Of a stretch of DNA of 64,000 nt, positions 4,098 through 33,546 are shown one piece after another. Under the pieces are notes generated by a model, which was not told the DNA's origin, made no database searches, and saw only the letters and a program-made list of their open reading frames with translations. Source of the DNA: an uncultured Bdellovibrionales bacterium (GTDB taxonomy: Bacteria; Bdellovibrionota_C; UBA2361; CAZKXU01). The position numbers and the translations under genes are program-made. Where the stretch lies: positions 36,078 to 100,077 of the forward strand of contig CAZKXU010000001.1 of the NCBI GenBank assembly GCA_964556665.1, in the 5' to 3' direction. The first letter of the stretch is position 1. Each line of letters opens with the position of its first letter.

Positions 4098-4105
4098 GAT
4101 TTATT

Positions 4106-4292
4106 CTAGTGCTTCGCCAAATAAGTTTTTTCACGTATAGCGCGCAGCGTTGCCCCAGATTGGCACGCCTCGGAAGGAGGAAATCCGCAGCAATACTGGA
4201 GTATTGCGAGGATTTTCCGACTGAGAAGCGTGACAAGGTGGGGCAACGATGTGATGCTAGACGTGAAAAAACTTATTTGGAGGAGCACTAGA
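4106..4292. repeat. MITE-like element C1 (187 bp, about 35-bp terminal inverted repeats CTAGTGCT.C.CCAAATAAGTTTTTTCACGTATAG, internal GCGTTGCCCC/GGGGCAACG hairpin)
   Basis: About 99% identical to the reverse complement of 33361-33546. Generates spurious 60-69 aa ORFs on both strands. Confidence 0.85.
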
Positions 4293-4323
4293 TCTACCCT
4301 GCAACGTAGTTGCATTTAATTTG

Positions 4324-4353
4324 TTTGCGGGCTGGAAGCCCGCGGTCCCAGGT
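4324..4353. repeat. Family A half-element (TTTGCGGGCTGGAAGCCCGCGGTCCCAG), abutting MITE C1
   Basis: Right arm only; matches the right arms of copies A1 and A5. Confidence 0.6.
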
Positions 4354-4363
4354 GTTTTAGGGA

Positions 4364-5878
4364 CTAAGCTTCCGCAATCCTTTTTTTAACCACATCTAAT
4401 GCCTCCTGTACGCCTATTCTGTCCTGCTTAGTAGTGTCACGATCTCGAATTGTAACGGTGTGGTCGGTTAGTGACTGGTGATCTACGGTTAAGCAATACG
4501 GTGTTCCGATCTCGTCATGTCTTGCATAACGTTTTCCGATAGATTGCTGCTCATCATAGCTCGCATTAATGCCAGCACTATAGAACTTGGCAACAATATC
4601 CCGTGCAACCTCAGGTAGGCCGTCTTTTTTTGTAAGCGGACAGACTGCGACTTTAAATGGAGCAAGACGTGGATGCAGTTTTAATATAACCCGAGTCTTG
4701 GATTCCCCCTCTGCATCTACTCCTGACTCCTCTGCATAAGCATCGATCAGGTACATAAGCACAGCTCGGCTCAAACCAGCAGCGGGCTCAATAACGTACG
4801 GTACATAACGCCAGCCTGGTTTGCCTGTCTGTGGATCGTTTTTACCCTGATCAAAATAGGTGAGTTTGGCGCCGGAATACTCCGCATGTTTAGTAAGATC
4901 ATAATTAGTGCGGGAAGCTATACCCTCAAGCTCGCCCCATCCCCACGGATAATCATACTCTACATCAACGCAGCGATCAGCATAATGAGCTAGTTCATCC
5001 TCTGTATGCTCACGTAGTCTAAAACGCTGTGGATAGTTAGCAAAACGCTGCCACCATTTTAACCTTAGATCGCACCAATACTTGTGCCATTCCAGCTGCG
5101 AGCCTGGCTCTACAAAATACTCCATCTCCATCTGCTCAAATTCGCAGGTTCTAAAGAAGAAATGCTCAGTAGTAATCTCGTTTCTAAAAGATTTACCGCA
5201 TTGTGCGATTCCAAAAGGAACCTTCATAGACATGGAGCTTTGAACATTTAGAAACTGTACGAACATCGCCTGTGCTGTCTCAGGTCTTAGGTACACTGCT
5301 GACTCCTTGATGGCTGCTTCCATACGTTCGCGCAGCTCTAACTTAGTTAGACTCTTTCCGTGCACCTCATCTACAATAGCCTGTATCGGATCGACTGGGC
5401 CAAGTGAGGTACGGAACATTAAATTAAATTTCCTTTCAGTGCCCAAGTCGCTTGATCCGCAAACAGGACAGACATAACCACATTCTCCAACCTTACCCTT
5501 AACTGTTTCACCTTTAGCTTTGCCGCCTTTGATCCAGGTAATATCGCTGCCGGCACTCATGTTGGTAGCTTTATCTGCTCTAAAACGCTCCTTGCAGTTA
5601 TGACAATCCACGAGCGGATCGGTAAATCCAGAGAGATGCCCGCTTGCCTCCCAAACCTTTGGATGCATAACAATCGAGGAGTCAAGACCTACCACATCCT
5701 CCCGTTCGTGCACCATCGTACGCCACCATTCCGCAGCGATATTCCGCTTTAACTCAACTCCAAGCGGACCGAAATCGTATGCGCTTTTTAGTCCGCCGTA
5801 GATCTCGGAGCTTTGAAAAACAAAGCCGCGTCTCTTACAGAGCGAGGTGATTTTATTCATTATTTCAGCTTCAGCCAT
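4364..5878 (-). CDS. glyQS: Glycine--tRNA ligase, single-chain alpha2 type
   Basis: N-terminal RRGFVFQSSEIYGG, class II aaRS motifs, about 500 aa. ATG at 5878 overlaps the upstream TGA stop (ATGGCTGA); GTG at 5887 is also possible. Confidence 0.9.
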   Translation of the reverse strand: MAEAEIMNKITSLCKRRGFVFQSSEIYGGLKSAYDFGPLGVELKRNIAAEWWRTMVHEREDVVGLDSSIVMHPKVWEASGHLSGFTDPLVDCHNCKERFRADKATNMSAGSDITWIKGGKAKGETVKGKVGECGYVCPVCGSSDLGTERKFNLMFRTSLGPVDPIQAIVDEVHGKSLTKLELRERMEAAIKESAVYLRPETAQAMFVQFLNVQSSMSMKVPFGIAQCGKSFRNEITTEHFFFRTCEFEQMEMEYFVEPGSQLEWHKYWCDLRLKWWQRFANYPQRFRLREHTEDELAHYADRCVDVEYDYPWGWGELEGIASRTNYDLTKHAEYSGAKLTYFDQGKNDPQTGKPGWRYVPYVIEPAAGLSRAVLMYLIDAYAEESGVDAEGESKTRVILKLHPRLAPFKVAVCPLTKKDGLPEVARDIVAKFYSAGINASYDEQQSIGKRYARHDEIGTPYCLTVDHQSLTDHTVTIRDRDTTKQDRIGVQEALDVVKKRIAEA

Positions 5879-6977
5879 GTGCAACACTCAGATCAGGTAA
5901 ACGATTAACTCTTTCATATAAGGTATCTCTTTCTTGCGGCTCTCTACCAGCCGCTCTTATAATGCGCTTAATATCCTCAATTGTTAACGCATTAGGGGAA
6001 TCGGAGCCAGCCATATGATAGATCTTCTCCTCGGTGACTGTACCGTCAATATCATTTGCACCAAAAAGCTGTGCTATCTGTGCTGTTTTGACCCCGAGCA
6101 TAATCCAGTAAGCCTTAATGTGAGGAATATTAGAGAGCATCAATCGGCTGACTGCTATGACTCGTAAATCATCCACACCGGTAGGTGCAGGCAGCCGCTC
6201 CATACGGTTATTTTCATTGTGAAAGGCGAGCGGAATAAAAACCTGAAACCCTCCGGTTTCGGCTTGCAGAGTACGCAGACGGATAAGATGATCGACGCGT
6301 TCTTCTACCGTTTCGATAGTTCCGTATAACATGGTGCAGTTGCTTTTAAGCCCCAGCTCATGTGCAGTTCGGTGAACTGCCAACCATTCATCAGCTGTAG
6401 CCTTTTCACGACAGAGCTTTTTTCTGGCTCGCTCTGCAAAAATTTCTGCGCCACCTCCAGGTACCGAACCAAGACCAGCTGCTATGAGGCGAGTTAATAC
6501 TTGCTTATAGGTCATGCCGTATTTTACAGCGAAATAATGTATTTCTACCGCTGTAAAAGCCTTAATGTGCAAAGCCGGATATTCAGTATGAATCATCCTA
6601 AGGAGATTCTCATAGTACTCAAACGGTAGATCCGGATTAAGTCCATTCACGATATGAATCTCAGTCATGCCAATTTTATACCGTTCAGCTATCCAACGTC
6701 TGGACTGCTCAAGGCTCATGGTATAGGCTTGCGGATCGCCGGTCTTGATCCTAGAAAATGAGCAGAATATACAGTCTGCTTCACATACATTTGTACTGTT
6801 AAGATGTAGATTCCAGTTATAGTAAGTTATATTGCCATGCAGTCTCTCGCGATGCCGATTGGCAATAGCCCCTACTGTTAAAAAATCGTGATGGGTAAAT
6901 AACGCAACCCCTTCTTCAAGAGAGAGAAATTCACCTGCAAGTACTTTCTCCTCGATACGCTTTAAGATTCGATCCAT
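5871..6977 (-). CDS. Radical SAM menaquinone (futalosine route) enzyme, MqnC or MqnE
   Basis: CEADCIFCSF provides the CxxxCxxC motif. C-terminal FGANDIDGT motif typical of the MqnC/MqnE family. 368 aa. Confidence 0.75.
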   Translation of the reverse strand: MDRILKRIEEKVLAGEFLSLEEGVALFTHHDFLTVGAIANRHRERLHGNITYYNWNLHLNSTNVCEADCIFCSFSRIKTGDPQAYTMSLEQSRRWIAERYKIGMTEIHIVNGLNPDLPFEYYENLLRMIHTEYPALHIKAFTAVEIHYFAVKYGMTYKQVLTRLIAAGLGSVPGGGAEIFAERARKKLCREKATADEWLAVHRTAHELGLKSNCTMLYGTIETVEERVDHLIRLRTLQAETGGFQVFIPLAFHNENNRMERLPAPTGVDDLRVIAVSRLMLSNIPHIKAYWIMLGVKTAQIAQLFGANDIDGTVTEEKIYHMAGSDSPNALTIEDIKRIIRAAGREPQERDTLYERVNRLPDLSVAHG

Positions 6978-6990
6978 ACATTTGTTAGAG

Positions 6991-7755
6991 CTATAAAGCA
7001 GCTCTTAATCCTACAATTTTTTTCTTGAGTTCCTCACTCTGGTCACCGAGCTCAACGGCTTTCTCAAATGCAATTAAAGAGTTTTTATAATCCTTTGAGA
7101 TTTCGTAAGCAGTTCCGAGAGTTATATATGTTTCAGCGTTAGCTTTAACCTGAAGTGCTCTTTTTGCACTACTGATCGCTTTGTCCGTTTTACCATTTGC
7201 TAGAAAAAGCGAGCTCAGATTGGAGAGCAGCTGACCATCTTTTGGATTTAGTTCAACTGCAACAAGCATTAATTGCTCCGCCTTATCTAGTTTATTTTGC
7301 AGAGTATAAACCGAACTTAGCCGTTGTGGTATTGTTGGGTAATGAGGATCAAGTTTTAAGGCCGCTTCATAATTCTTTGCAGCAGCATCTGTATTTTTTG
7401 AGGCGAAATATGCATCACCTAAGCGAGCATAGATCCCGGGGTCTTTAGTGTCCTGATTAGCATACTGCTCCAAGAGGGCGATAGCCTGCGGCTCCTTCTT
7501 ATTAGTGATGTATACTGTGGCCAAATTTATTACAGCGGTTAAGTTTTTTGGGTCAGCTGCCAGGGCACTACGAAAAAATGCCTCTGCCACAGGATAATTT
7601 TTTGAACGTACCGCCTGAACACCCTTTTCATTTAGTATCGCAGATTTATTCTCAACTTTAGTGTGTTGCCCAATCTTTGGTGTGCAAAATGCAGAATACG
7701 GGAAAAATAGTAAAGCGAAAAATAAGGGGAAAATCCTAATCATCTGTTGCCTCAA
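6991..7755 (-). CDS. Secreted tetratricopeptide-repeat protein
   Basis: Signal peptide (IRIFPLFFALLFFPYSAFC), then repeated A-x-x-Y/F-x-x-A/L TPR-like 34-mers. Confidence 0.65.
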   Translation of the reverse strand: MRQQMIRIFPLFFALLFFPYSAFCTPKIGQHTKVENKSAILNEKGVQAVRSKNYPVAEAFFRSALAADPKNLTAVINLATVYITNKKEPQAIALLEQYANQDTKDPGIYARLGDAYFASKNTDAAAKNYEAALKLDPHYPTIPQRLSSVYTLQNKLDKAEQLMLVAVELNPKDGQLLSNLSSLFLANGKTDKAISSAKRALQVKANAETYITLGTAYEISKDYKNSLIAFEKAVELGDQSEELKKKIVGLRAAL

Positions 7756-7812
7756 AAGCTGTAGATATATAGGTAAAATCTAGCTTTTAGCGGCATCAAA
7801 GTCAATTATTAG

Positions 7813-8610
7813 CTACTTACTCCCTACACTTACATAAAACGCGAGACCACCAATTAATGCTGAATATATAATTGGTATGAGCGCAGTGATTAACTGAAAA
7901 TGCTTCCAGTATGGCCGCCCAGCCAGGAGTTCCTCGGCTTGAGTGATTACACGTGCATTTAGACCAAGGATTAAAACGGTAAAAAGAAATATCCCAGGTA
8001 TTTGCTGAAGATATGCAAGAAATAGAATCTGAAGCGGGCCAATAATCAGAAGAAGATTAAAGGAGCGTATCGTAAATTTAAGTAACTTTGACTGCTGCTT
8101 AATCGCTGCAAAAGTCTTCGCTAATTCTGTAGCAACAACTAAGGTGGATATGCCTAATGCGATGACTATAGCCTGCCAGCTCCAATTATATATCAAAATT
8201 GTAAAAGCTAAAAAACTAATAACTGTGTAATATGTCAGCGCAGCAGTCATGTATAATTTAATTATGCGTTTACTAAGATAGTGTGACTTTAGAATTGTTA
8301 GAGCCAATAAGGGAATAATTAGAAGAAACATCTCTCTGTCAGCAATGTTTCTGAATGAGTGTAGGGAGAATAAAAAAAGCAGTAATATTAATATTGTGAT
8401 TACAACGATGAATGTAAATTTAGCGCCTTTTTGTCCAGGACGTATAATTTTTTTGCAGAGCTCACGTAGTAATTTCCAAAGAATAAGAATAATTAATAAA
8501 AGAGCATAAAGTTTAATATTAATTACGGAGCCAAGTGTAGGAAACGCAAAAATAACCGGAAAGAAGAGCGGCAATACTAAATTGAGGTGCTGAATCAGTT
8601 TGAAAGGCAT
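7813..8610 (-). CDS. Polytopic integral membrane protein, function unknown
   Basis: About 8 hydrophobic helices in an AT-rich coding region. Confidence 0.5.
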   Translation of the reverse strand: MPFKLIQHLNLVLPLFFPVIFAFPTLGSVINIKLYALLLIILILWKLLRELCKKIIRPGQKGAKFTFIVVITILILLLFLFSLHSFRNIADREMFLLIIPLLALTILKSHYLSKRIIKLYMTAALTYYTVISFLAFTILIYNWSWQAIVIALGISTLVVATELAKTFAAIKQQSKLLKFTIRSFNLLLIIGPLQILFLAYLQQIPGIFLFTVLILGLNARVITQAEELLAGRPYWKHFQLITALIPIIYSALIGGLAFYVSVGSK

Positions 8611-8636
8611 GTTATATAATTAAACTTATGCTAAAT

Positions 8637-8830
8637 GACAAAATAACGTACCGTTATTTTGTCTGTCGGCCTTTGACCATCCGTGGCCAAAGGCCTCCTC
8701 GAACGGCTTGAAACGGGTCCCCGAGCGCCCATTTCAAGCCGTTCTCCGAGCCTACGGCTCGTCCTGGCCATCCATGGCCAGGCTATAGCAAGTGACAGAA
8801 TAACGCTACGTTATTCTGTCACTTGCTATA
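8637..8830. repeat. Composite multi-hairpin element family B, copy 1 (about 195 bp, four consecutive perfect or near-perfect hairpins)
   Basis: GACAAAATAACGTACCGTTATTTTGTC; GGCCTTTG...CAAAGGCC; GAACGGCTTGAAA...TTTCAAGCCGTTC; CTATAGCAAGTGACAGAATAACGCTACGTTATTCTGTCACTTGCTATAG. Nearly identical at 63083-63277. Confidence 0.85.
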
Positions 8831-8887
8831 GTCTGCCCGTAGCCCGCAACATAGATCTTCTATGTTTTCCGTATTATTATCATATGT

Positions 8888-9316
8888 ATGTCACTTACAA
8901 TTAATAGATTGCTGACAATCCCCGACTCTGAGCTCAGCTTTACCTTCAGTCGTGCTTCTGGCGCAGGCGGGCAGAATGTAAATAAGGTTAATAGTCGTGC
9001 TACTCTTATTTGGAATGTTTTTAGTTCAAAGGCAGTTTCCTCTGAGCTGAAGGCCCGTTTTATCTCACTTTTTAGTAATCGGATTAACCAGGCAGGTGAA
9101 CTTCTTATCTCCTCTGACCGATTTCGCGAGCAGAGCAGAAACCGAGAGGATTGTATCTTACGACTTGAGAGTATGATACAAAAAGCGTTACATAAGCCTA
9201 AGTTGCGGCGCAAAACAAAGCCCAGTAATGCCTCACATGAACGGCGTATAACTGGCAAGAAGATCAGATCTAAGAAGAAAAATAACCGTGGAAGAATTAA
9301 ATTAGGACAGCTTTAA
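8888..9316 (+). CDS. arfB: Peptidyl-tRNA hydrolase ArfB (ribosome-rescue factor, release-factor-like)
   Basis: GGQ motif (SGAGGQNVNKVNS). About 140 aa with a basic C-terminal tail (KLRRKTKPSN...RSKKKNNRGR). Confidence 0.8.
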   Translation: MSLTINRLLTIPDSELSFTFSRASGAGGQNVNKVNSRATLIWNVFSSKAVSSELKARFISLFSNRINQAGELLISSDRFREQSRNREDCILRLESMIQKALHKPKLRRKTKPSNASHERRITGKKIRSKKKNNRGRIKLGQL

Positions 9317-9533
9317 TATGGAACACTTCAATCGAAAAGATGGGCCGTTTCAACTTTTTCAACGCAAGGTTGTTAATAAAAGTAATTACAACTTAGTTGA
9401 GTATATTAAAGTTATTCTTATCCTCTGTGTAGTGCGAATAGTTATGCTGATTTCTGGTGTGACTTTTATTGCTATTCCCTATCTAGATGGTGTATTACGA
9501 ATGCTCATATCAATGGTGATGTAGATAGTTAAA

Positions 9534-10238
9534 ATGCCCAAGGACGTAACATACAGCCGGATCGGATTTGAGGTGCAGGAGATGTTTGGCTCCATTGCAG
9601 CTGGGTATGATCGTGCCAATACGATTCTTAGCTTTGGTATACATCATCTTTGGCGTAAGGCGCTTATAGCTAGCCTTCCAAAGGGCCAAAAACTCGAGAT
9701 ATTAGATCTTTGCACGGGCACTGCAGATCTTATTCCACCTCTGGTCCCTCTAGCAAAAAGGTTGGTAGGAGCTGATTTCTCTCTGCCTATGTTAGTCCAA
9801 GCAGGGAAGAAGCTTAATCGGCTTGGTTTAAAAGCAGAATTAGTACAGGCAGACGCCCAAAATCTTCCATTCGCAGAGATGAGTTTCGATCTGATAACGG
9901 TGGCTTTCGGAGTGAGAAATTTTGAAAATTTAGAATTGGGATTAAAAGAGATGCTTCGCGTAATTAAGCCGGGCGCCACAATTAGAATATTAGAATTTGG
10001 CACACCTCCCGGCCTTTTTGGTTTAATCTACAAATTTTATTCCGATAAGTTGCTGCCACTTATAGGTGGATTAATAACAGGAAATCGTGCTGCTTATCGC
10101 TATCTGCAGAAGACCTCCTCTCATTTTCCGTATGCCGATCAGTTTGCTGCTAAGCTAAGCGAGGTTGGATATCAAGATGTAAGTTATAAGGCCTTAACCT
10201 TCGGTATTTGTTATCTTTATTCAGCTAGACGGATCTGA
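9534..10238 (+). CDS. ubiE: UbiE/MenG family demethylmenaquinone methyltransferase
   Basis: N-terminal FxxxAxxYDxxN (FGSIAAGYDRANTILS). SAM motif I ILDLCTGTADL. Confidence 0.75.
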   Translation: MPKDVTYSRIGFEVQEMFGSIAAGYDRANTILSFGIHHLWRKALIASLPKGQKLEILDLCTGTADLIPPLVPLAKRLVGADFSLPMLVQAGKKLNRLGLKAELVQADAQNLPFAEMSFDLITVAFGVRNFENLELGLKEMLRVIKPGATIRILEFGTPPGLFGLIYKFYSDKLLPLIGGLITGNRAAYRYLQKTSSHFPYADQFAAKLSEVGYQDVSYKALTFGICYLYSARRI

Positions 10239-10431
10239 ATCGTCTCTATTGATTAGGTCTAAGTGATATCCTAAAATATGTCCTTTAATAATGCTCAGTT
10301 GATGCTCTTTGCAGAATGTCGTTCTATCCTTGCCAGTAACGAATTCATTAATGACTTAAAAAATGGTAGAATAGTGGCCAGTTCTGATTCAACTGGAACC
10401 GTACTCATCCTTTATTTTTATTGAGAATTTT

Positions 10432-11082
10432 GTGCCATATACAAAAAAGTGGGTTATAGCTCTTACAGGTGCCAGTGGGATGCCGTATGCATTGCGGCTT
10501 ATTAAGAATCTTTTGAATGAGGAGATCGAACAGCATATAATAATCTCTGAAGCTGCTCATCAGGTATTGGCCGCAGAGCAGGGTATTAAAATATCTAGTG
10601 CCAAACTTAACAGTAAATCACTCCTAGGGGTGGAGAGTGATAAACTCCACTTTTATAACCCGCGTGACATAGGAGCGGCCCCTTCTTCGGGGTCGTTTTT
10701 ATTTGAGGGAATGGTAGTCGTGCCATGCAGCATGGGCACCTTGGGAGCGATTGCAACCGGAACACCGCGCAACCTTATTCATCGTGCCGCCGATGTGGCT
10801 CTCAAGGAGAATCGAAGGTTAATCCTTGTTCCTCGAGAAACTCCACTTTCGGCCATCCATCTTGAGAATATGCTTAAACTAAGCAGGATGCAGGTGCAGA
10901 TGGTTGCAGCGATGCCAGGCTTCTATGCTATGCCTGCTAATATAAATGATTTAGTTGACATGCTCGTTATGAAGATCATGGATTCAATGGGAATTCATAG
11001 AGAGCTGGTGCCGCGTTGGGGTGTGGAGAGTCCAGGCAGCGCCATTACTGAGACAAAAGTATTTGAGTTAAACCGTGGGTAA
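10432..11082 (+). CDS. ubiX: Flavin prenyltransferase UbiX (prenyl-FMN synthase)
   Basis: IALTGASG flavoprotein start, VVPCSMGTLG motif, about 210 aa. Confidence 0.85.
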   Translation: MPYTKKWVIALTGASGMPYALRLIKNLLNEEIEQHIIISEAAHQVLAAEQGIKISSAKLNSKSLLGVESDKLHFYNPRDIGAAPSSGSFLFEGMVVVPCSMGTLGAIATGTPRNLIHRAADVALKENRRLILVPRETPLSAIHLENMLKLSRMQVQMVAAMPGFYAMPANINDLVDMLVMKIMDSMGIHRELVPRWGVESPGSAITETKVFELNRG

Positions 11083-13827: not shown

Positions 13828-13833
13828 TTTCTG

Positions 13834-14706: not shown

Positions 14707-14935
14707 ATACTGAGCTCGAGGAAGCTCGATTCTGTGCCAAATTCTGGAGTATGCGCATTCCAGCCCCTGTAAACTCAGCAGGCACTAATAATCTATAACC
14801 TAAGGCGCATAAGCTGCCATCAAGGATCTCTACATGCTCAATTATGACAGGAATACCTGCATCTTCTAAGACTGCGCAATAATGGTTGGCTACTCTCTGT
14901 TCGGTAATCGTAGTCAGCACCAGAAACTTTTCCAT
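14687..14935 (-). CDS. Small DUF2007-like protein
   Basis: MEKFLVLTTITEQRVANHYCAVLEDAGIPVII pattern. Start taken at the internal Met of the longer ORF. Confidence 0.35.
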   Translation of the reverse strand: MEKFLVLTTITEQRVANHYCAVLEDAGIPVIIEHVEILDGSLCALGYRLLVPAEFTGAGMRILQNLAQNRASSSSVSKLNVV

Positions 14936-15156
14936 GCCTATCCTCCTATGAATTATGAGAAATATCAGTAATGCCAGCCTGGCTATCTCATGCTTCACAT
15001 GATAAATCCATGCTAGTGTGCCCTATCAGCACATTCATTCTTATATGGTTATTTAACCTCAACTATTCCTTATCGCCAGTGCAAAAATATGATCATTCTA
15101 CAAATAAATATTTTTTGGATAGATTAAAATTATTTTTTTAACGAGAATGCTTCTAT

Positions 15157-17265: not shown

Positions 17266-17408
17266 TTTGTTAGCTTAAACAATTCAAGGTATACATATGA
17301 ACTTCTAGTCTGATTGCTGCCAAGGAGGCTTTTACTTAGTTATCTTTGAACTCAAAAAAGTGGTAGATTCTATAGGTAGTTAATTACATTAAATTCCGCT
17401 TAAGCAGT

Positions 17409-18717: not shown

Positions 18718-18809
18718 ACTGGGACCGCGGACATCCTGTCCGCTGTTGGGACAGCCTACAATTACGGCAAGTCTACTAATCTGCGGACAGGATGTTCGCG
18801 CTCCCAGTG
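18718..18809. repeat. Palindromic element family A, copy 3 (variant with GCGGACATCCTGTCCGC arms)
   Basis: TACTGGGACCGCGGAC...GTTCGCGCTCCCAGTG. Covers the 3' end of the pabB-like gene and creates three spurious ORFs. Confidence 0.7.
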
Positions 18810-20697: not shown

Positions 20698-20884
20698 TAG
20701 GGTCGTAGAGTAACATTATGGGTGGTGGTAATAAATATGAGTGAAATTGTCTTGTAAATACAGCCTCTTGCAGTCTTACATGACGGGGTTGTTTCAACTT
20801 GGATAGCAGTATACAATCCTCTCCTAAACTTTTTATTGTTTGCTGAACTGAGTCCAGTCTGAATCGATTCAGATCAGGAATCTT

Positions 20885-25528: not shown

Positions 25529-25604
25529 AAAACAGTGTGCATACTTATCATACGCGTGCAGTCTAATTGTTAAAGATCGTCATGCTCACCTGCACACTTT
25601 ATCT

Positions 25605-26642: not shown

Positions 26643-26746
26643 CAATCATTCATTAGTGAGTCAGGAAGAATGGGTGCTAAGCACCATAGAAGTCAGGTAG
26701 GTTCGTAGCCAACCTTTGGCTAAACCTAATAACTGTGTATGAGGAA

Positions 26747-26935
26747 TTATGCTACTATGTTCAATCGGGTACCTACACCGGGTGCGGGTGTATTGTCTAA
26801 ACCTTCAATTAGCAGTTCTGCGATATCACCTTTTTGATCGAGCGCTTTTTTAAATACTGCAACTTCAGCTTTCTGGTTATACTCTTCTAGTTTTTTGGAA
26901 GAAATTGCCGATACGGACAAGATTTCGTCTGCCAT
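26747..26935 (-). CDS. YjfB-like small protein (putative motility protein family)
   Basis: SVSAISS...AEVAVFKKALDQKGDIAELLIEGL resembles the YjfB signature. Confidence 0.4.
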   Translation of the reverse strand: MADEILSVSAISSKKLEEYNQKAEVAVFKKALDQKGDIAELLIEGLDNTPAPGVGTRLNIVA

Positions 26936-27430
26936 TGAAAACTCCTTTTACAATTTGCACCACCACAAATTGGCAACGCCCGGGGATCCATTCCCTAGTA
27001 AAAGTATCGGAGTCGACGCTTAGTTGCATAAGGCGTATTTATAGTTCAAGGGCATTTATACGAGTATAATCGAGTGCGCTCAAATTTATAGGAAACCATA
27101 GTGATTTTAGTATGTTATACGCCAATGATAATAAACAGATCCATTTCAGTCGAATTTATGACTTATAGTATGGTGATTGGTAAAGAGAGACTCGCACCTT
27201 CAATACGAATAACTTGAAGATTGTATTTTAAAACGATACCATCCTCCGCTTGTATTACTATGTTCTATAAAAATTAGTTTGGGCAGTAATTATGAGTAGA
27301 AGGGTAGGTTATCGTTCCTCGGGAGATCCTCACCGGTCTGCCCTGGAACGGTAGCGGTCAGATTGAAGGTTTTATCTAGCCGCAAACCGTTTGGCGATCC
27401 ATTCATGTTGCTTCTTCTGAGGAGCTTCAA

Positions 27431-29011
27431 TTGAAGAAAAGAGGCGGTTCAGGTTCGAAAGAGGGAATCGAGGTCATAGACAGGCCTGATGGAAAAAAGG
27501 AGGTCAAGGTTAGGCAGGTCGATCTCGCTGCTGCTGAAAACAAAAAGGAAGCAGTGGCAGCGAATCGGAGTGCTTGCGAGGGGCTTTCAGGCCTTGCACT
27601 CAAGGGCAAGGTCGTTCTCTTGAGCTTCGTCGGAGAGAACGGTTCCCGAGTAGCGCCAAGCGACACTATGCGTGACTTCGCGATCGGGAAGCTGCGCGGA
27701 AACTGTGCAGGGCTCTTCAAGCCAAACCTGCAAAGGGGTGGCTGGGAGGCGCTCTCGAAGAAGCAGGAGACGCAGTTTGTCCCGTTCGAGGAGGGCGCTG
27801 CCCCTGTGCTGGAGGTATTCGAGGAGGTTCCCTCGGAACCAGAAGCCTACGTAAAGCGGCTCTACATCGGAAGTGCTGATGCTTCCGGTGTGCTGACCAT
27901 TAGCCTTGATCTTGCTCCTCATTCCGCACTGATAGCGGATCTGGAGCGCGAGGCTGCGGAGAAGCGTGAGAGGGTCGCTGGTAAGGTGGTGGTTCTCGAG
28001 GCGCGCGCTGGTGGTGAACTGAAGAGCGATCACTGGAAGGCAGTTTTGCGTGGATTTGGCGCTGTACTTAAGGCAAAGCTGGTTCTGCGCAAGAGCTCTC
28101 TCGGTGATGGAAACTACGTTGTGCTCTTCAGCACCGATGAACGCTGGAACTTGGATAGCCGCAAGATCCTTGCCGAGCTCTTGGCACCGGTCGAATCGGC
28201 GAATCCGCAAGAGACGTCAGCGGCGGCTGAGCCGGCGGCAGAGGAAGTGGTGGCTGAAGAAGCTCCCGTGGCCGAAGCTGCAGAGCCAGAGGTGGTAGCC
28301 ACGGATGACGGCGCGCAAGCGCCGCCAGATGTTGCTCCACCCATGGATGAAGTTCCTGCAGTTGTAGAGACATCTGCGGCCGAAGCCACTCCTGCGCCGA
28401 CGGTGAAGGAAGCAGACGACGGTGCGCAGGTTCCGCCAGATGCACCTGCACAAGTGGTTGAAGTTCCGGCAGTTGAGGAGGTGCCTGGTACACAGGTGCC
28501 AAATGCTGCTGAGCTTGTGGTGGCTGAAGAACCACCACTTGGGCTTGAGGAGCTTTTGCCTGATGCGTTGCCGGCTGAAGAAGTCGCGCTGCAGGCTCCT
28601 ACTATGCCCGATGCTGCTGTTACTGCTCCCGATGCCAGCGTGGCAGAAGCTGCAGTGACACCCCCGAGTGGAGATGGTGATGCGGTCCAGGCGGCCGATA
28701 TTCAAGCAGCTCCCGAGGCTCCACCGGCAGAGCCAGAAGTGGTGGGCACAGCAGTGCTAGTTGAAGCACCGGACGTGGTGGCGCAGGCTCCGGCGGTTGA
28801 ACTGCTAGAGGAGATGTCTCCTGAGACAGGAAGAGCTGCGTCACAGATCGAGGCATTGCCTGCGGATCCAGCCCCTAGTGACGGTGCTCCACCGGTAGCT
28901 TCACTTGCACCTGCTTCCAGATCGGTACCGCCACATAACGGGCTGAAATGGTGGCAGATCATTCCCAAGCTACGTCGCCGCATGGCAAAAAACCTTGGGT
29001 TGCGAGAGTGA
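27431..29011 (+). CDS. GC-rich Pro/Ala/Glu-rich repeat protein, unknown function; TTG start
   Basis: Long ORF in a visibly GC-rich island. Acidic PAPE-type low-complexity C-terminal half with an approximately 117-bp tandem repeat (DDGAQ.PPD...EVPAV). Confidence 0.55.
   Translation: MKKRGGSGSKEGIEVIDRPDGKKEVKVRQVDLAAAENKKEAVAANRSACEGLSGLALKGKVVLLSFVGENGSRVAPSDTMRDFAIGKLRGNCAGLFKPNLQRGGWEALSKKQETQFVPFEEGAAPVLEVFEEVPSEPEAYVKRLYIGSADASGVLTISLDLAPHSALIADLEREAAEKRERVAGKVVVLEARAGGELKSDHWKAVLRGFGAVLKAKLVLRKSSLGDGNYVVLFSTDERWNLDSRKILAELLAPVESANPQETSAAAEPAAEEVVAEEAPVAEAAEPEVVATDDGAQAPPDVAPPMDEVPAVVETSAAEATPAPTVKEADDGAQVPPDAPAQVVEVPAVEEVPGTQVPNAAELVVAEEPPLGLEELLPDALPAEEVALQAPTMPDAAVTAPDASVAEAAVTPPSGDGDAVQAADIQAAPEAPPAEPEVVGTAVLVEAPDVVAQAPAVELLEEMSPETGRAASQIEALPADPAPSDGAPPVASLAPASRSVPPHNGLKWWQIIPKLRRRMAKNLGLRE
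28303..28536 (+). repeat. Approximately 117-bp in-frame tandem repeat inside the GC-rich gene
   Basis: GATGACGGCGCGCAAGCGCCGCCAGAT... recurs as GACGACGGTGCGCAGGTTCCGCCAGAT... Protein level DDGAQAPPD / DDGAQVPPD. Confidence 0.6.
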
Positions 29012-29020
29012 AGTCAGTGC

Positions 29021-29070
29021 GTGCGGGGGTGTGTCTGAAGCAGCAGACACACCCCCGCGGCCCTTAGTGG
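29021..29070 (+). terminator. Strong GC hairpin after the GC-rich gene
   Basis: GCGGGGGTGTGTCTGAAGCAGCAGACACACCCCCGC; no clean U-tract. Confidence 0.45.
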
Positions 29071-29237
29071 TTTTTAAAAGGGTGACCGCGCCGTTTGTTT
29101 TTCGTTATAGATCTAAGACTAGCGAAGCTCGCACCTTAGGCAGATAGTTGTTTTTATTGCTTCATCAATAATGCGTTGGAATAATTAGTTATTTAAAAAA
29201 CTATGAGAAGGGGCGGCTAGATCAAGCCGCGGCATAA

Positions 29238-29281
29238 AAAAACGGTGTGCATATTTATCATATGCACACCGTCTCATCGCT
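29238..29281 (-). terminator. Intrinsic terminator for the pilin-like gene
   Basis: Minus strand reads CGGTGTGCATATGATAAATATGCACACCG followed by TTTTTTT. Confidence 0.7.
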
Positions 29282-29297
29282 AAGAGTAATTCTACAC

Positions 29298-29705
29298 TTA
29301 GATACTATCTCCGATGTTCTGGTCGTTAAAGAAGGTTGAAACGAGAGAACGAAGGATAAAAGCACCTACTGCAACAACTAACAAGCCAAGAGCGGCTTTA
29401 TACTGACCGAATGCAGAGGCAAAGATAGCTCCTATTCCAGCAGCAACCATTACTAACGCACCAAATGAACCTTCAAGATATGTGAAGATTCTATTAACAG
29501 CTAATGCAATACGCTGATCGTTGTAGTTTCCTACATCAATCTGAGCACTCGCACCATGTACAAGACCGGCGCTTAATAGGCCAATCCCGATTAAGAAAAG
29601 AGCAACCTGGGCCTGACTCTGAGAAGGAGCATAAAATGCTGCCCCTACTTTCTGTCCAAGGCCAAGATAACCCTTTTTAAAAGTAGCAAGAATTTTCTTG
29701 GACAT
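29298..29705 (-). CDS. Small membrane protein, possibly VirB2/TrbC pilin-like
   Basis: 135 aa. N-terminal Lys-rich leader, hydrophobic segments separated by a loop, Gly/Ala-rich. Followed by a perfect intrinsic terminator. Confidence 0.4.
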   Translation of the reverse strand: MSKKILATFKKGYLGLGQKVGAAFYAPSQSQAQVALFLIGIGLLSAGLVHGASAQIDVGNYNDQRIALAVNRIFTYLEGSFGALVMVAAGIGAIFASAFGQYKAALGLLVVAVGAFILRSLVSTFFNDQNIGDSI

Positions 29706-30120
29706 AAATTAACTCCGTTAAGTATTAATACTATATTTTCCCTTTACCGGCAGCAAACCTTAGTTTTTACCTCAAGCAGCTGCCCCATGTGTTTTCTAAT
29801 TATGTTATGTTGACAGATAATAAGATGTGACCTGTTTTTTTATTGATATGGTGCAGCGCGGCTATGAAAAAACTAGTGTATACAGATGGTTAGCAGGCTT
29901 AATCGGTATTTGATCATTAAGTGTGGGTATTCTCTTTGTCCCAGTCCTAGTCCTAGTCCGCGTGGACTGTGATGAGGGTAAGGATTCGGACAAAGACAAA
30001 GACGAGGACTGGGACAAGGAGATTACCCACACTTTTTCAGCAGTTACGGAGAAAGAGAATACCCACACCTAATGAGCAGTTACGCAGACTTGAGATAATT
30101 AGTAGTATGCTCTCAGCACA

Positions 30121-31038
30121 ATGAAATCACGCAGAAGAGCTACACTAATAGGCCTAATAGCAGTTTTCGTATGGGGGTTTGGCCTGCCTGTATCACGGTT
30201 TATTAACGAGCAGGTAGGATTTGTTTATGCAGTGTTCTCTATATTTGGTTTGTCAGGAGTGATAGGAATCACTCATCAATTATTTGTTGCAAAAACTCCA
30301 CCTCCTTTAGTCTTATTAAAAAATCCGGCGCTCTATTTCCGCTTAATGTTTTTTATCGGGCATGAGATATGTGTGCACCTTGCGATGTTTCTCTGCTCAA
30401 AACAGAACCTCGCATTTGTCATTCTCTTAAATTATCTTTGGCCAACCTGTGTACTGCTTTGTTCAATACTATTAGGAGAGTTAAAAATAACGAGATGGCT
30501 GATATTTATCTCAGGCTGCACAGTCGTGCTGCTTGGACTGACAAATGAGGTAGTTGGAATTGATTCCTTAACACTCAAGCTTTTTGAAAATAGACTAGAC
30601 TGCATTGCCTATCTTATAGTGATCTTAGGTGCGATCTCATGGGGAATGTTTTCTGCACTCTCAAGAAAGTATGAAGAGAGCGGTGGTGGTAGTGCGGTAA
30701 TGCCATATTTTCAGCTGATTGTAGCGTTATGCGCACTACTCTTTCTCTTTTTCCCAGAATTTCGCTTTGCATGGGATCTCACTCTTTCTGGATATGTGGC
30801 ACTATTCTGTATTTCACTAGGAGCGTTAGCTGCGTTTTACTCCTGGGATTATGGTATGCGAAAAGGGAATGTCGTGGTTCTAAGCCTATTTGCAGACTTT
30901 ATTCCCTGGCTATCCCTTTTCTCAGCGCACCTACTTGTATCTGTAAATATTGGGATTGATACTATTACCAGTGCGGTAGTCCTGGTAATAGGGGCAATGA
31001 TCACAAGGGCTGGGACGGCAGCTGGTAAATCGGCCTAA
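30121..31038 (+). CDS. Integral membrane protein (about 10 TM, DMT/EamA-like?)
   Basis: Hydrophobicity pattern only. Confidence 0.45.
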   Translation: MKSRRRATLIGLIAVFVWGFGLPVSRFINEQVGFVYAVFSIFGLSGVIGITHQLFVAKTPPPLVLLKNPALYFRLMFFIGHEICVHLAMFLCSKQNLAFVILLNYLWPTCVLLCSILLGELKITRWLIFISGCTVVLLGLTNEVVGIDSLTLKLFENRLDCIAYLIVILGAISWGMFSALSRKYEESGGGSAVMPYFQLIVALCALLFLFFPEFRFAWDLTLSGYVALFCISLGALAAFYSWDYGMRKGNVVVLSLFADFIPWLSLFSAHLLVSVNIGIDTITSAVVLVIGAMITRAGTAAGKSA

Positions 31039-31126
31039 TATTCTGAGGCATTTATACATACCTATTTTAACAAGTTAGTTAAATCCACAAGCAACAATTT
31101 TATCATTTTCTCGAATATATAGATAT

Positions 31127-31320
31127 ATAGTGAGTGACAGAATAACGTAGCGTTATTCTGTCACTCACTATAGCCAGGCCATGGGTGGCCAGGTCGGGCC
31201 GAAAGGCCCGGAGAACGGCTTGGAATGGGCTCTCGGGGATCCGTTCCAAGCCGTTCGAGGAGGGATTTAGCCATGGACGGCTAAATCCCGACAGCCAGAA
31301 TTCCGCTACGGAATTCTGGC
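31127..31320. repeat. Family B element, copy 2, opposite orientation and diverged terminal hairpin
   Basis: Starts with ATAGTGAGTGACAGAATAACGTAGCGTTATTCTGTCACTCACTATAG, ends with GCCAGAATTCCGCTACGGAATTCTGGC. The central GAACGGCTTGGAA...TTCCAAGCCGTTC hairpin is shared. Confidence 0.75.
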
Positions 31321-31356
31321 AATCATTATAGATCTTACTTTAGCTACTTTTCAGGA

Positions 31357-31767
31357 GTGTATATGAATAACAAAGGCTTTAGTTATGAAATTAGAGAGGG
31401 AGATATCCTGCAGTTCAGAGAGGATATTAATGTAATACCTGCGGGTGTATATCGGGTAGATGGGGTCGATGAACAGATGATATATTTTATGGCTGGGAAA
31501 AGCGCTGTATTTGGTGTGGAGAGAAGCTGTCAGGGAAAGATGGTGAAGCTCCCGCGAGAAAGCGGTAAAATAAAAATTACAGCGCTTAATTCCTTCTTAG
31601 AACGGTACTATAGAAATCTTAAGGCACGCAAAGGTAAAGCATGGTCAGTAACAGAGCTTGCATCTCTTCCCGTGACGATGTGTTTTATAGATCCATCTGT
31701 GGCAGCACTGTTTGAGGAGGAGTTATATAAGGAGGAGAAAGAGGGTCAGTGTGAAATAATGCACTAG
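31357..31767 (+). CDS. Hypothetical protein (136 aa)
   Basis: Clean ORF, no motif. Confidence 0.4.
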   Translation: MYMNNKGFSYEIREGDILQFREDINVIPAGVYRVDGVDEQMIYFMAGKSAVFGVERSCQGKMVKLPRESGKIKITALNSFLERYYRNLKARKGKAWSVTELASLPVTMCFIDPSVAALFEEELYKEEKEGQCEIMH

Positions 31768-31937
31768 CCACCCCTTCTCATAGTTTTTCAAATACCTATT
31801 TATTCCAACGCATTATCGATCAAGCAATAAAAACAACTATTCTCAAATAAAATGGAGCCGCCCTACTTTTCAACTATTTGGGAATTTGTCATCAATTAGA
31901 TTGCATACGAGTCAAAAATAATGTAGAATTTTGACAT

Positions 31938-33089
31938 ATGATCCAAAGGCTTATTAACCCATTGAAATCAAACAGCTTCTTCCTGTTTGGGGCACGTGGA
32001 ACAGGAAAAACATTCTTTTTAAAGAATTTTTTTAGTAAGGAGCAATATTTATTAATTGACCTTTTGAGCACCTCAAATCTAGCCCGATTTAGCGCGTACC
32101 CCGAGGAGTTGTCGAAGATAGTTAAGAGTCAAAAAGTAGAGTGGATCGTTATAGATGAAGTGCAAAAAATCCCTTCCTTACTCGATCTTGTTCATAAACA
32201 TATAGAAGAAGATCGACAAAAATTTGTATTAACTGGCTCAAGCGCCAGGAAATTAAAGCGTGGCGGAGCAAATCTTTTGGCAGGCAGAGCTTATGTAAAT
32301 TATATGTTTCCTTTAACTCATCGTGAGCTGGCTGAGAATTTTGATCTGCATACAGCTCTTGCATGGGGCAGCCTACCCAAGTCATATCTATTAGAGAATG
32401 ATCAAGAGAAGCGAGTATTCTTAAATTCGTATACAGACACATATCTTAAGGAGGAGATTCTGATTGAACAGATTGTGCGTAAACTTCCACCCTTTCAAAG
32501 GTTTCTTGAAATAGCCGCGCACACTGATACTGAAGAGATTAATTTAACAAACATAGCAGCAGATGTTTTAACTAGCCCTAAAAATATTCAGCGGTATTAT
32601 CAGATTTTAGAAGATACCCTTCTCGGATTTTTTCTTGAATCTTATCATACCTCTATTAGGAAACGTCAGAAACGTAGCAAAAAATTTTATTGGTTTGATG
32701 TCGGAATTATACGATCACTTACCGGTAGTATAGATAATAAATTACTTGTAAAAAGCTATGAATACGGCAAATTGTTCGAATCTTTCGTAATTAACGAGAT
32801 TAAAAGACTGCTAACCTATTCAGGCCGCAGATATGCTCTTTCATTTCTTAGAACAACAGATGGTCAGGAGATTGATCTTATAATAGAAAGAGCTGGCATG
32901 CCAACTTATCTAGTTGAAATTAAGTCAACTGATTTTGTACGTGAGGAACATGTTACCACCCTGAATAATTATCTGAAGGAGTTTAAAAATGCAAAAGCGA
33001 TCTGTTTGTCAAATGATTTAAGCAGTAAAAAAATTGGTGCAGTAGATTGCTTCGAGTGGAAGGAAGGAATTACTGAGATGGGGATTTAA
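31938..33089 (+). CDS. AAA ATPase with DUF4143-type C-terminal domain (COG1373-like)
   Basis: Walker A GARGTGKT, Walker B IVIDEVQ. Confidence 0.7.
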   Translation: MIQRLINPLKSNSFFLFGARGTGKTFFLKNFFSKEQYLLIDLLSTSNLARFSAYPEELSKIVKSQKVEWIVIDEVQKIPSLLDLVHKHIEEDRQKFVLTGSSARKLKRGGANLLAGRAYVNYMFPLTHRELAENFDLHTALAWGSLPKSYLLENDQEKRVFLNSYTDTYLKEEILIEQIVRKLPPFQRFLEIAAHTDTEEINLTNIAADVLTSPKNIQRYYQILEDTLLGFFLESYHTSIRKRQKRSKKFYWFDVGIIRSLTGSIDNKLLVKSYEYGKLFESFVINEIKRLLTYSGRRYALSFLRTTDGQEIDLIIERAGMPTYLVEIKSTDFVREEHVTTLNNYLKEFKNAKAICLSNDLSSKKIGAVDCFEWKEGITEMGI

Positions 33090-33360
33090 ATGGCTAATGG
33101 CTAGGAGATCGCTTATTGTTTTGTCTAATAAACCAAATCTCGGACATAAAAGTTAACAGTTAGTTGTGCTATAATTGAGTTGAAGGTGGCTTTGAAGAGA
33201 CGATAGAGGCAGTGAAAGATTAGGGGTGCAAAGTTAGATAGTATAAGTAAAGCACTGAGGACCGAAGGGATTTTAATACGTATTAGTGTTCTAGTATATA
33301 TAGGAACTAAGTTGCTGAGCATAAGCGCATAGTAGGAACTGTTGATTTTGGCTCTAAGCA

Positions 33361-33546
33361 CTAGTGCTCCTCCAAATAAGTTTTTTCACGTATAGCATCA
33401 CATCGTTGCCCCACCTTGTCACGCTTCTCAGTCGGAAAATCCTCGCAATACTCCAGTATTGCTGCGGATTTCCTCCTTCCGAGGCGTGCCAATCTGGGGC
33501 AACGCTGCGCGCTATACGTGAAAAAACTTATTTGGCGAAGCACTAG
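33361..33546. repeat. MITE-like element C2, inverted orientation relative to C1
   Basis: Reverse complement matches 4106-4292 with about 1 mismatch plus TIR tip variation. Confidence 0.85.

Follow-up and report, generated by a model that had tools for sequence, protein, structure and literature searches.

A 186-nt sequence that occurs twice, as the inverted copies C1 and C2, in a 64-kb stretch of DNA (the whole stretch analysed, hereafter the window) is best read as an ordinary, previously unnamed miniature transposable element (MITE), here called element C. The two copies probably belong to a young family of non-autonomous DNA transposons that has several copies in the genome of an uncultured bacterium. 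Bacterial MITEs are typically shorter than 500 bp (PMC10969869); element C lies well within this limit, lacks a transposase gene, carries terminal inverted repeats (TIRs) and is dispersed at unrelated loci, with a copy number that was determined indirectly. The features of the element are listed in Table 1.

Table 1. Positions in the window of element C, its repeats and frames, and the adjoining repeat
Feature	Position	Strand	Remarks
C1, copy of the 186-nt element	4106..4291	+	element-plus orientation; folds as one 78-pair hairpin
C2, reverse complement of C1	33361..33546	-	185/186 identical; sole difference 33392 against 4260
Left TIR of C1	4106..4141	+	CTAGTGCTTCGCCAAATAAGTTTTTTCACGTATAGC
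Right TIR of C1	4256..4291	+	GCTAGACGTGAAAAAACTTATTTGGAGGAGCACTAG
Right TIR of C2, element orientation	33361..33396	-	
Left TIR of C2, element orientation	33511..33546	-	
Terminal CTAG	4106..4109	.	candidate duplicated target (CTAG or inner TA) or TIR tip; also at 4288-4291, 33361-33364 and 33543-33546
Spurious 60-codon ORF (GTG...TAG) across the element	4109..4291	+	handle for finding other copies
Mirror ORF of the element	4106-4315	-	
Family A palindromic repeat copy, 5'-truncated	4293..4353	.	directly abuts C1; unrelated to element C

The initial annotation had described the regions at 4106 and 33361 as near-identical reverse complements, and 185 of the 186 positions do match; the length of 187 bp given there for C1 is corrected to 186 nt for both copies. 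The one internal mismatch reported earlier was recovered at element position 155 (G at 4260, T at 33392, where the + strand reads A). The accompanying small changes at the TIR tips do not separate the copies, which show zero differences there; they are two positions at which the left TIR of an element fails to match its right TIR (CTAGTGCTTCGCC vs CTAGTGCTCCTCC), common to C1 and C2. Similarity breaks off precisely at the outer CTAG of either end and the flanks are unrelated; the copies are therefore not parts of a more extended duplication. The rest of the 64-kb window contains no other copy, whether intact or degenerate. That a segmental duplication or an assembly error created C1 and C2 is an a priori possibility in a metagenome-assembled genome and has nothing else in its favour, and its probability is negligible. 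The flanks are unrelated immediately outside the element, independent ENA assemblies (L002 and L003) show the same flank–element junction, a third copy lies in another context (L008) and about ten further copies lie on other contigs, and the artefact was rejected on these four grounds. The earlier caveat that only two copies might exist, within duplicated flanks, is likewise answered by the additional copies and the unrelated flanks.

Copies beyond the window were counted by proxy, using annotated ORF translations and not genomic DNA. Each strand of the element has a 60-codon frame without stops; these spurious ORFs had been annotated by gene callers, which made other copies countable. The genome-wide count proposed in the initial annotation thus gave approximately 12–14 copies, more than two, on at least seven contigs of one NCBI assembly. 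The database proteins translated from element copies (P0121–P0127 and P0129–P0132) include the plus-strand translations P0121, P0123 (two contigs), P0124, P0122, P0125 (two contigs), P0126 (which is C2) and P0127, and the minus-strand translations P0129, P0130 and P0131. They were found on contigs of 135681, 76881, 61992, 61618, 33816, 23515, 7419 and 4130 nt, and six of the proxy ORFs have differing flank-derived N-termini. Because the host GlyRS occurs on a single contig, the proxy copies most likely come from one assembly.

The copies, about a dozen at unrelated loci, are 97–100% identical. A third copy was available as DNA at 2771-2956 of the independent ENA contig L008; it is identical to C1 at 186 of 186 positions and has unrelated flanks. 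A truncated NAD_binding_9 ORF, matched by Pfam at E = 1.4e-20 over profile positions 34-154 (of 155), ends at this copy, which is an insertion within the remnant of that gene; P0131 and P0132 are NAD_binding_9 fusions with the element frame as their tail. Three independent metagenome contigs of the same species (L002, L003 and L008) end inside or at the element, as expected of a dispersed repeat. A diverged relative, P0128, from a JGI metagenome, is intergenic and shares 65% peptide identity with no indel over 50 codons, which may point to an older family.

The element encodes no transposase, as had been stated before, and only the 60-codon frames cross its palindrome. Transposase domains (Pfam) were absent from the window ORFs of at least 100 aa, and the 60-codon frames had no homologues besides other element copies. 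Within the 64-kb window no autonomous insertion sequence with the same TIRs was found, and a scan of genome contigs gave only a chance match among the matches listed. Plasmid and phage collections and Rfam gave no match to the element, which is likened below to known MITEs by description and not through a sequence library, and a literature search found no published description of such elements in the host's phylum, probably Bdellovibrionota.

The TIRs extend over 31 nt with two mismatches, or over 36–37 nt at 92–95% complementarity, in agreement with the approximately 35 bp noted previously, and they are identical across the three DNA copies (C1, C2 and L008). When up to three mismatches were allowed, the 31-nt TIR occurred four times in the window versus none in all 100 shuffles. 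The whole element is predicted to fold into one long imperfect hairpin of 78 pairs (RNA MFE -115 kcal/mol, z = -16.65), with pairing that spans the entire 186 nt and uses 78 of the 93 possible pairs. The internal hairpin of the initial annotation, GCGTTGCCCC/GGGGCAACG, is a real pairing and merely one segment of this structure.

Each of the three DNA copies has CTAG at both of its ends, immediately outside which the sequences diverge. Every proxy ORF that enters from the flank has Leu at the point of the CTAG, encoded by CTA in the three DNA copies. When the flanks were checked for a target-site duplication, CTAG...CTAG fitted a duplication of TA or of CTAG and equally a TIR tip; CTAG is palindromic at both ends, so that such a duplication is inseparable from an extension of the TIRs. 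Counting the terminal CTAG or TA as duplicated target would leave an element of 178–182 bp. No consistent direct repeat was found outside the CTAG, where the three DNA copies have the trinucleotides ATT/ATC, CTA/TGC and CTT/CTT. Empty sites were not recovered, as the same-species ENA contigs end in the element, and the closest relatives have a GlyRS only 73–76% identical and a gene order that differs at the C1 junction. Mobility is consequently inferred from dispersal and was not seen directly.

The non-autonomous transposon would owe its mobility to a DDE transposase that acts in trans and whose gene lies in another part of the genome. This enzyme would bind the TIRs and integrate the element at 5'-CTAG-3', duplicating either TA, in the style of IS630/Tc1-mariner, or CTAG, in the style of IS5. 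Surviving copies would mostly represent landings of low harm, such as gaps between convergent genes (C1 and C2) and a decaying gene (L008). Transcription running through the element, a near-palindrome over its whole length, would give a double-stranded RNA hairpin of approximately 78 bp. In the way demonstrated for Correia and ERIC elements, this hairpin could affect the upstream mRNA, in its stability or in how its 3' end is formed, an effect that would be a by-product and not the reason for the existence of the element. As cited in PMC2170065, Tenzen and Ohtsubo (1991) reported that IS630 prefers TA within CTAG and that the TA is duplicated, and duplication of TA by ISY100 was shown in vitro (PMC2170065). 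In all three DNA copies, the TA inside CTAG flanks GTGCTT...GAGCAC. If the element is defined as GTGCTT...GAGCAC, its TA-in-CTAG flanks would correspond to the preferred target of IS630, to which MITEs of IS630/Tc1-mariner origin (for example, pneumococcal RUP and cyanobacterial Nezha) are related; no IS630-family transposase or full-length insertion sequence with element C TIRs was found. The Correia element is also flanked by TA. If CTAG is the duplication, the tips of element C read 5'-TG...CA-3', as is typical of many DDE transposon ends. MITEPsy1 of Pseudomonas syringae, an IS5-like element of 100 nt with 18-nt TIRs, inserts at and duplicates CTAG or YTAA (PMC3189936); its CTAG target would be compatible with element C, whereas its TIR sequence, as printed in PMC3189936, is unrelated to element C. 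Elements of the IS481 type also insert at CTAG, with NCTAGN as their target; assignment to this type was discarded, as the 6-bp NCTAGN duplication is absent: the flanking bases are T/A in C1, A/T in C2 and T/C in L008 (element orientation).

The extent of the pairing also suits a palindromic repeat of the REP/BIME, PATE or foldback kind that depends on its hairpin and not on a DDE transposase and TIRs. The spread or maintenance of such a repeat would depend on an enzyme recognising single-stranded DNA hairpins (RAYT or a Y1 transposase of the IS200/IS605 type) or on gene conversion between its arms within one molecule. Besides pairing over its full length, element C offers two observations of this kind. 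P0122 reads L-D-L...E-E-V where the others read L-V-L...E-E-H, which at the peptide level fits CTAGAC...GTCTAG, that is, apparently matched tip changes from TG...CA to AC...GT. Minimal back-translation of P0128, under optimistic assumptions, keeps 42–44 of 49 assessable pairs versus approximately 36 expected under random substitutions. The matched tips of P0122 and the whole-length pairing are not predicted by a DDE mechanism and would fit hairpin-dependent constraints better. The presence of other palindromic families with compensated stems in the genome also speaks for such a repeat. However, this covariation was seen only at the peptide level, the repeats of element C are perfect up to the tips, and the same tetranucleotide bounds both sides, whereas IS200/IS605-type and REP elements have no TIRs and have asymmetric ends. 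A hairpin-dependent repeat is therefore considered unlikely.

REPs are 20–40 nt long, have asymmetric ends and are linked to RAYT genes. The 186 nt of element C far exceed the size of a REP unit, its ends are symmetrical and the window ORFs contain no Y1_Tnp-type or RAYT domain; assignment to REP/BIME was accordingly rejected. REP/BIME and the Rickettsia palindromic elements (RPEs) resemble element C in their palindromic, dispersed and non-coding nature. RPEs can sit in frame inside genes, and element C invites the same comparison, as it has one frame without stops on either strand. Whereas RPE insertions are read through, the frame of element C ends in the terminal TAG, so that a host ORF is truncated and not internally extended, as in P0131/P0132. 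Only approximately 0.8% of column-shuffled palindromes of the same composition are stop-free on both strands. A mobile module constrained by its hairpin, in which the arms co-evolve and the stop-free frame on both strands is possibly also kept up, was judged rather improbable. If it were correct, a gene that received the element, whichever way round, would gain a defined tail of 60 residues, as in P0131/P0132, and mobilisation by recognition of single strands or hairpins, or selection at the RNA or peptide level, would be implied.

The element might instead act as a functional structured RNA module, either a 3'-UTR hairpin that serves as a terminator, stabiliser or RNase III site, or a small RNA gene of its own, the alternative already raised in the initial annotation. 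C1 follows the stop codon of a 110-aa ORF by 8 nt and is 72 nt away from that of glyQS; C2 follows the stop of a 1053-aa ORF by 57 nt, with the end of a DUF4143 ATPase gene at a distance of 271 nt. Both copies are thus placed between converging genes, as reported for glyQS and the 1053-aa gene, and both follow a gene closely in the same relative orientation. The fold of the element-plus strand is more stable than that of the minus strand (-115 vs -100 kcal/mol, with 4 vs 1 G-U pairs), and Correia and ERIC elements act in this manner (PMC10969869). Nevertheless, two cases of the same orientation have a 50% probability by chance, 4 vs 1 G-U pairs are too few to count as evidence, and the orientation relative to adjacent genes varies, the L008 copy being opposite to the gene reading into it. 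Rfam gave no match at the gathering score over the whole window, and at E ≤10 for 4050-4400 only noise (E ≥0.46) outside or at the edge of the element; a known structured RNA family was rejected on the lack of a matching covariance model. No promoter-like site was detected inside the element and no T-run after it, and an identity of 97–100% indicates a recent burst, not long-term purifying selection. A functional RNA is thus quite unlikely, and the proposal of a small structured RNA gene found no support.

C1 directly abuts a family A palindromic repeat (59 nt, 83% identical to 1478-1536). The suggestion that C1 had inserted into and split this repeat was not borne out: the missing first ~16 nt of the A copy are absent beyond C1. 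At least three other families of short palindromic repeats occur in the same genome.

As two 186-bp inverted repeats, 99.5% identical and 29,069 bp apart, C1 and C2 could in principle serve as a substrate of homologous recombination for a 29-kb inversion; nothing indicates that it has occurred or is used. In a comparison with a distant relative (L009/L010), gene order is kept on the side of C1 that faces the interval and ends at the C1 junction, as would follow from a real inversion, programmed or recurrent. However, the genes located after glyQS in the relative (crcB, proC, GH3 and OTCase) are missing from the other junction and from the window as a whole, so an inversion between C1 and C2 does not explain the break in synteny. 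Within the interval lie housekeeping genes (glyQS, the futalosine pathway of menaquinone, and folate/pABA-type genes), an invertase is absent, a 186-bp repeat is a weak substrate for RecA, and the ENA contigs stop inside the element and are uninformative. An actual inversion is accordingly very improbable.

Among known elements, MITEs that form end-to-end hairpins are comparable, namely, Neisseria Correia, enterobacterial ERIC/RU-1 and YPAL/RU-2 (RU-2, 168 bp) and Coxiella QMITE2. They share the size range, TIRs of 20–35 bp, the lack of a transposase, dispersed, mostly intergenic copies and a transcript with a very stable predicted stem-loop. QMITE2, at ~190 bp, has a deltaG of -113 (PMC10969869), compared with the -115 predicted here. 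No sequence similarity to these MITEs emerged from the searches of the plasmid and phage collections and Rfam, their host phylum differs, and Correia and ERIC reach a much higher copy number than about a dozen.

Only two points are slightly out of the ordinary: the hairpin runs the full length of the element, with tips that are possibly compensated, and one frame is free of stops on either strand. The finding opens no new question. The element has generated a dozen spurious 'hypothetical protein' annotations of 60–195 aa in public databases and is fused to at least one gene remnant. It also breaks short-read assemblies of the organism, as three independent contigs end in or at it. Recognition as a MITE removes these false genes, flags possible sites of rearrangement and adds a MITE family to a little-studied lineage, probably Bdellovibrionota.

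Element C is present in the window as two inverted copies, C1 and C2, whose positions are listed in the table. The near identity claimed for them in the initial annotation was borne out: they are 186-nt reverse complements (99%) with a single difference at element position 155, which is G in C1 (window 4260) and T in C2 (33392; A on the + strand). The coordinates first proposed held within one base, but the 187 nt assigned to C1 was incorrect, and the supposed changes at the tips of the terminal inverted repeats (TIRs) distinguish the left from the right TIR within a single element (TTCG vs TCCT) and are common to both copies. Similarity ends sharply at the outer CTAG on either side, so C1 and C2 do not represent a segmental duplication. 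Four occurrences of the 31-nt terminal sequence (at most two mismatches) were counted in the window, one per end of each copy, vs none in 100 shuffles. Searches of the window with blastn-short and nhmmer revealed no copies, intact or degenerate, other than C1 and C2, and BLAST of the element against plasmid and phage collections yielded no match.

Element C starts with CTAGTG and ends with CACTAG, and its TIRs are 36-37 nt long (92-95%); a transposase-bearing element that shared them would be bounded by CTAGTGCT[TC]C[GT]CCAAATAAGTTTTTTCACGT. Folding produced one imperfect hairpin of 78 pairs from the whole element, with pairing that continued beyond the TIRs. The minimum free energy of the RNA was -115 kcal/mol (z = -16.65) for the element-plus strand, defined as that of C1, and -100 kcal/mol (z = -16.2) for the element-minus strand. 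The internal hairpin GCGTTGCCCC/GGGGCAACG noted at first is indeed paired, but as one segment of this full-length stem. Four G-U pairs on the plus strand vs one on the minus strand are too few for an argument of constraint at the RNA level. No Rfam family was detected at gathering score in the entire window, matches around C1 at E ≤ 10 were noise only, and the tRNA/tmRNA scan identified no such genes. Neither a promoter-like site within element C nor a terminator-like T-run 3' of it was found.

Read from its tip (CTA GTG ... CAC TAG), element C contains no stop over 60 codons on either strand, and gene callers therefore annotate it. The plus-strand peptide search yielded seven distinct sequences in two clusters; P0126 is the translation of C2, and P0124 (92 aa) represents a third copy on the 135,681-bp contig carrying the window, beyond the window itself. 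Three more versions, on the minus strand and each bearing a different N-terminal flank, emerged from an exhaustive HMMER search. Counted through ORF translations, approximately 12-14 copies with 97-100% peptide identity exist, at least eight of them with demonstrably different flanks, more than the two copies first noted. All are most likely located in one assembly, because the glycyl-tRNA synthetase (GlyRS) encoded beside C1 is 100% identical to one NCBI protein only, on the 135,681-bp contig. A diverged relative from a JGI metagenome (3300059473), P0128, is intergenic on a 22,987-nt contig and is 65% identical over 46 residues (HMMER), with no indel over 50 codons in a hand alignment, which indicates that the family predates, and is more widespread than, the recent burst here. 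Scans with the 20-nt TIR core gave, among the matches listed for genome contigs, a single match in coding DNA attributable to chance (L001), and four of the same kind in coding DNA of metagenomes (L004-L007); viral scans gave no matches or a 20-mer shared by chance with a phage gene (L011, L012). Translations of this non-coding repeat from either strand account for at least 11 'hypothetical proteins' of 60-195 aa in NCBI/ENA (P0121-P0127 and P0129-P0132).

A further copy was recovered as DNA through P0132, the ENA twin of P0131, which is located on contig L008 (ERZ3430527, 2,959 nt). Positions 2771-2956 of L008 are identical to C1 at 186 of 186 nt and bounded by CTAG on both sides, with unrelated flanks. 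A 135-residue FAD-NAD(P)-binding fragment (NAD_binding_9, E = 1.4e-20, profile positions 34-154 of 155) reads into the element, which places this copy inside a gene remnant; its orientation to the gene is opposite to that of C1 and C2. L008 ends 3 nt past the element, and two same-species contigs with the 110-aa gene that adjoins C1, L002 and L003, stop inside C1 after 53 and 13 nt, a pattern that dispersed repeats usually cause in short-read assemblies. L008 (NODE_19311) also carries a chromate transporter and an AbiEii-type nucleotidyltransferase. Its k-mer coverage is 14.7 vs 2.9 for L002 (NODE_56009) in the same sample, and this higher coverage may reflect a multicopy replicon or a more abundant strain.

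Features of the window and contigs with translated copies of element C
Feature	Location	Strand or orientation	Description
Element copy C1	window 4106-4291	+	186 nt
Element copy C2	window 33361-33546	-	186 nt
P0121, P0122, P0123 (two contigs), P0125 (two contigs), P0127	contigs of 23,515, 4,130, 76,881, 61,992, 61,618 nt		plus-strand ORF
P0129	23,515-nt contig		minus-strand ORF
P0130	33,816-nt contig		minus-strand ORF
P0131	7,419-nt contig		minus-strand ORF
Repeat family A	~1476-1553, ~18718-18809, ~37045-37118, ~58502-58580; truncated 4293-4353		palindromic, ~75-95 nt
Repeat family B	8626-8838, 63072-63284, 31126-31338	third copy inverted	~205-nt unit, several hairpins
Repeat family D	29144-29220, 31764-31840	inverted pair	77 nt, 92% identical
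M23 peptidase + SH3 protein	37146-38643		
TraC_F_IV + TraG P-loop	39860-42619		
TraN-like	42628-43086		
TrbI	43558-44892		
TraG-D_C coupling protein	49524-51650		

Both window copies lie in gaps between convergent genes, in agreement with their reported placement 3' of converging genes. C1 is situated between the stop of the 110-aa ORF (4097, +) and that of the class-II glycyl-tRNA synthetase gene (4364, -), and C2 between a DUF4143/AAA_14 ATPase gene (end 33089, +) and a 1053-aa ORF without Pfam domains (end 33604, -). At both sites the element-plus strand runs in the same direction as the nearest upstream gene, which with n = 2 is a coin toss. A promoter-like site at 33532-33560 (+; TTGGCG, 17 nt, TATAAT; 10/12 matches) takes its -35 box from the C2 end and its -10 box from the flank, and faces the 1053-aa gene in antisense direction, at its 3' end; the -10 box is absent at the corresponding position of C1. 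No transposase, integrase or invertase domain was found in any non-overlapping window ORF of at least 100 aa. Within the 29-kb C1-C2 interval are genes of housekeeping type (glyQS, futalosine-type menaquinone, UbiA/UbiX/UbiE-like, chorismate-binding and GATase genes), and its G+C is unremarkable; a composite transposon was rejected on both grounds.

As two 186-bp inverted repeats, C1 and C2 are a possible substrate for RecA. GlyRS is 72-76% identical to proteins of MAGs labelled Bdellovibrionales, Oligoflexia or Deltaproteobacteria, by which the uncultured host probably belongs to Bdellovibrionota. The distant relative represented by L009/L010 (GlyRS 73%) agrees in gene order on C1's inner side (radical-SAM CofH_C, TPR, ..., UbiE, UbiX, UbiA). 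After glyQS, the relative has crcB, proC and GH3, whereas in the window this place is taken by C1 and the 110-aa, Gly-zipper and M16 genes. These genes of the relative are not at the C2 junction and are absent from the window; the synteny break is thus not explained by a C1-C2 inversion, and the comparison is uninformative about such an inversion. Aligning window 4097-4364 with L009 9515-9889 and L010 3040-3414, the UbiA-to-glyQS order is kept and breaks exactly at the glyQS 3' end, where the window carries a truncated family A element and C1. From this A copy (59 nt, 83% to 1478-1536), the opening ~16 nt of the consensus for the family, CACTGGGACCGCGGGCT, are missing. The sequence left of C1, ACCACAAGATAGGATTTATT, is unrelated to the missing piece, and the suggestion that C1 had split an A element was therefore not supported; where the A copy meets C1 it is truncated, not cut cleanly in two.

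Other repeats are distributed along the window. Family A has conserved tips (CACTGGGACCRCGG ... CCGCGGTCCCAGTG) and inner stems that vary by copy yet remain self-complementary (GGGCTTCCAGCC, GGACATCCTGTCC, GGGCATCCTTGCCC, GGGTATCTTGCCC), and looks REP-like with compensated stems. Two family B copies are 98% identical and the inverted third is ~80%, with compensatory stem differences such as GACAAAATAACG/CGTTATTTTGTC vs GCCAGAATTCCG/CGGAATTCTGGC; this family could be another miniature transposable element with inverted repeats (MITE) or a structured RNA. Family D has its own short TIR (ATAGTTGTTTTTA/TAAAAAACTAT) and an end near CTAG, and further inverted repeats form a local cluster of their own at 29898-30083. 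Families B, C and D all occur in the 29-33.5 kb stretch, which resembles a hotspot for repeats. C2 lies ~3.6 kb left of a conjugation/type IV secretion-like gene block (37146-51650), with only the 1053-aa ORF (33604-36765) between them; the block may represent either an integrated conjugative element or an apparatus of Bdellovibrio type. At 52313-56395, a class II lanthipeptide synthetase (DUF4135 + LANC_like, 1076 aa) adjoins an ORF with weak nitrile-hydratase-leader and Frankia_peptide similarity, and 61164-62727 encodes a RiPP-modification enzyme (MbnB/TglH/ChrH) together with its DUF2063 partner.

Loci free of the element would read GGATTTATT-CTAG-ATCTACCC or CTCTAAGCA-CTAG-TAGTAGGTT. IS630 is described, in the part of PMC2170065 that cites Tenzen & Ohtsubo 1991, as preferring the TA within 5'-CTAG-3' and duplicating TA; the TA duplication was demonstrated biochemically for ISY100 (PMC2170065), and the IS5-like MITEPsy1 duplicates CTAG (PMC3189936). 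By analogy, the terminal CTAG of element C is suggestive of an IS630- or IS5-like target. If TA were duplicated as in IS630, the element proper would be GTGCTT...GAGCAC (182 bp); if CTAG were duplicated as in MITEPsy1, it would be TGCTT...GAGCA (178 bp) with TG...CA tips. Tips of this type are common to DDE transposons. Duplication and TIR tip look alike in the three copies because CTAG is itself palindromic. A 3-bp duplication outside CTAG was rejected (C1 ATT/ATC, C2 CTA/TGC), though L008 has AAG/AAG in contig orientation (CTT/CTT in element orientation). An IS481-type 6-bp NCTAGN duplication did not agree with the C1, C2 and L008 flanks and was likewise rejected, as was target choice through CTAG scarcity (200 CTAG in the window vs 219-241 expected).

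It is rather unlikely that element C is hairpin-dependent, or constrained as RNA or peptide, instead of a plain DDE MITE, although several observations fit such an element. Pairing spans the full length and not the TIRs alone. P0122 reads L-D-L...E-E-V vs L-V-L...E-E-H in all others, and its DNA could be CTAGAC...GTCTAG in place of CTAGTG...CACTAG, i.e. two adjacent base pairs flipped in both arms, as judged at the peptide level from one copy. With minimal nucleotide changes from the C1 peptide to P0128, 42-44 of 49 assessable stem pairs are kept vs ~36 under random substitution, with 2-3 apparent double changes, a weak calculation that assumes unchanged silent sites and picks favourable codons. 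Among column-shuffled palindromes of the same composition, frame 1 is open on both strands in 0.8% and any frame pair in 2.3%; however, the frame of P0128 closes at 51 codons, and the open frame is thus not strictly conserved. Such open frames have precedent in the ORFs and gene fusions that Delihas described in enterobacterial RU/ERIC elements (PMC2759123).

Element C is probably a MITE. Prokaryotic MITEs are defined as elements below 500 bp with TIRs and stable stem-loop transcripts (PMC10969869), and Coxiella QMITE2 (~190 bp, deltaG -113; PMC10969869) closely resembles element C in size and folding energy. Element C fits this structural description: it is small, has TIRs and no coding capacity of its own, and occurs in ~12 near-identical copies at unrelated loci, mostly intergenic and once in a decaying gene; the transposase-less TIR element described in the initial annotation is confirmed in these respects. 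As a MITE, it would depend for mobilisation in trans on a DDE transposase from another locus, with insertion at CTAG; we infer this enzyme, the target duplication and ongoing activity. The family is previously unnamed, and the genome is rich in short palindromic repeats. Recognition of element C as a MITE would explain the assembly breaks and remove ~12 spurious protein annotations.
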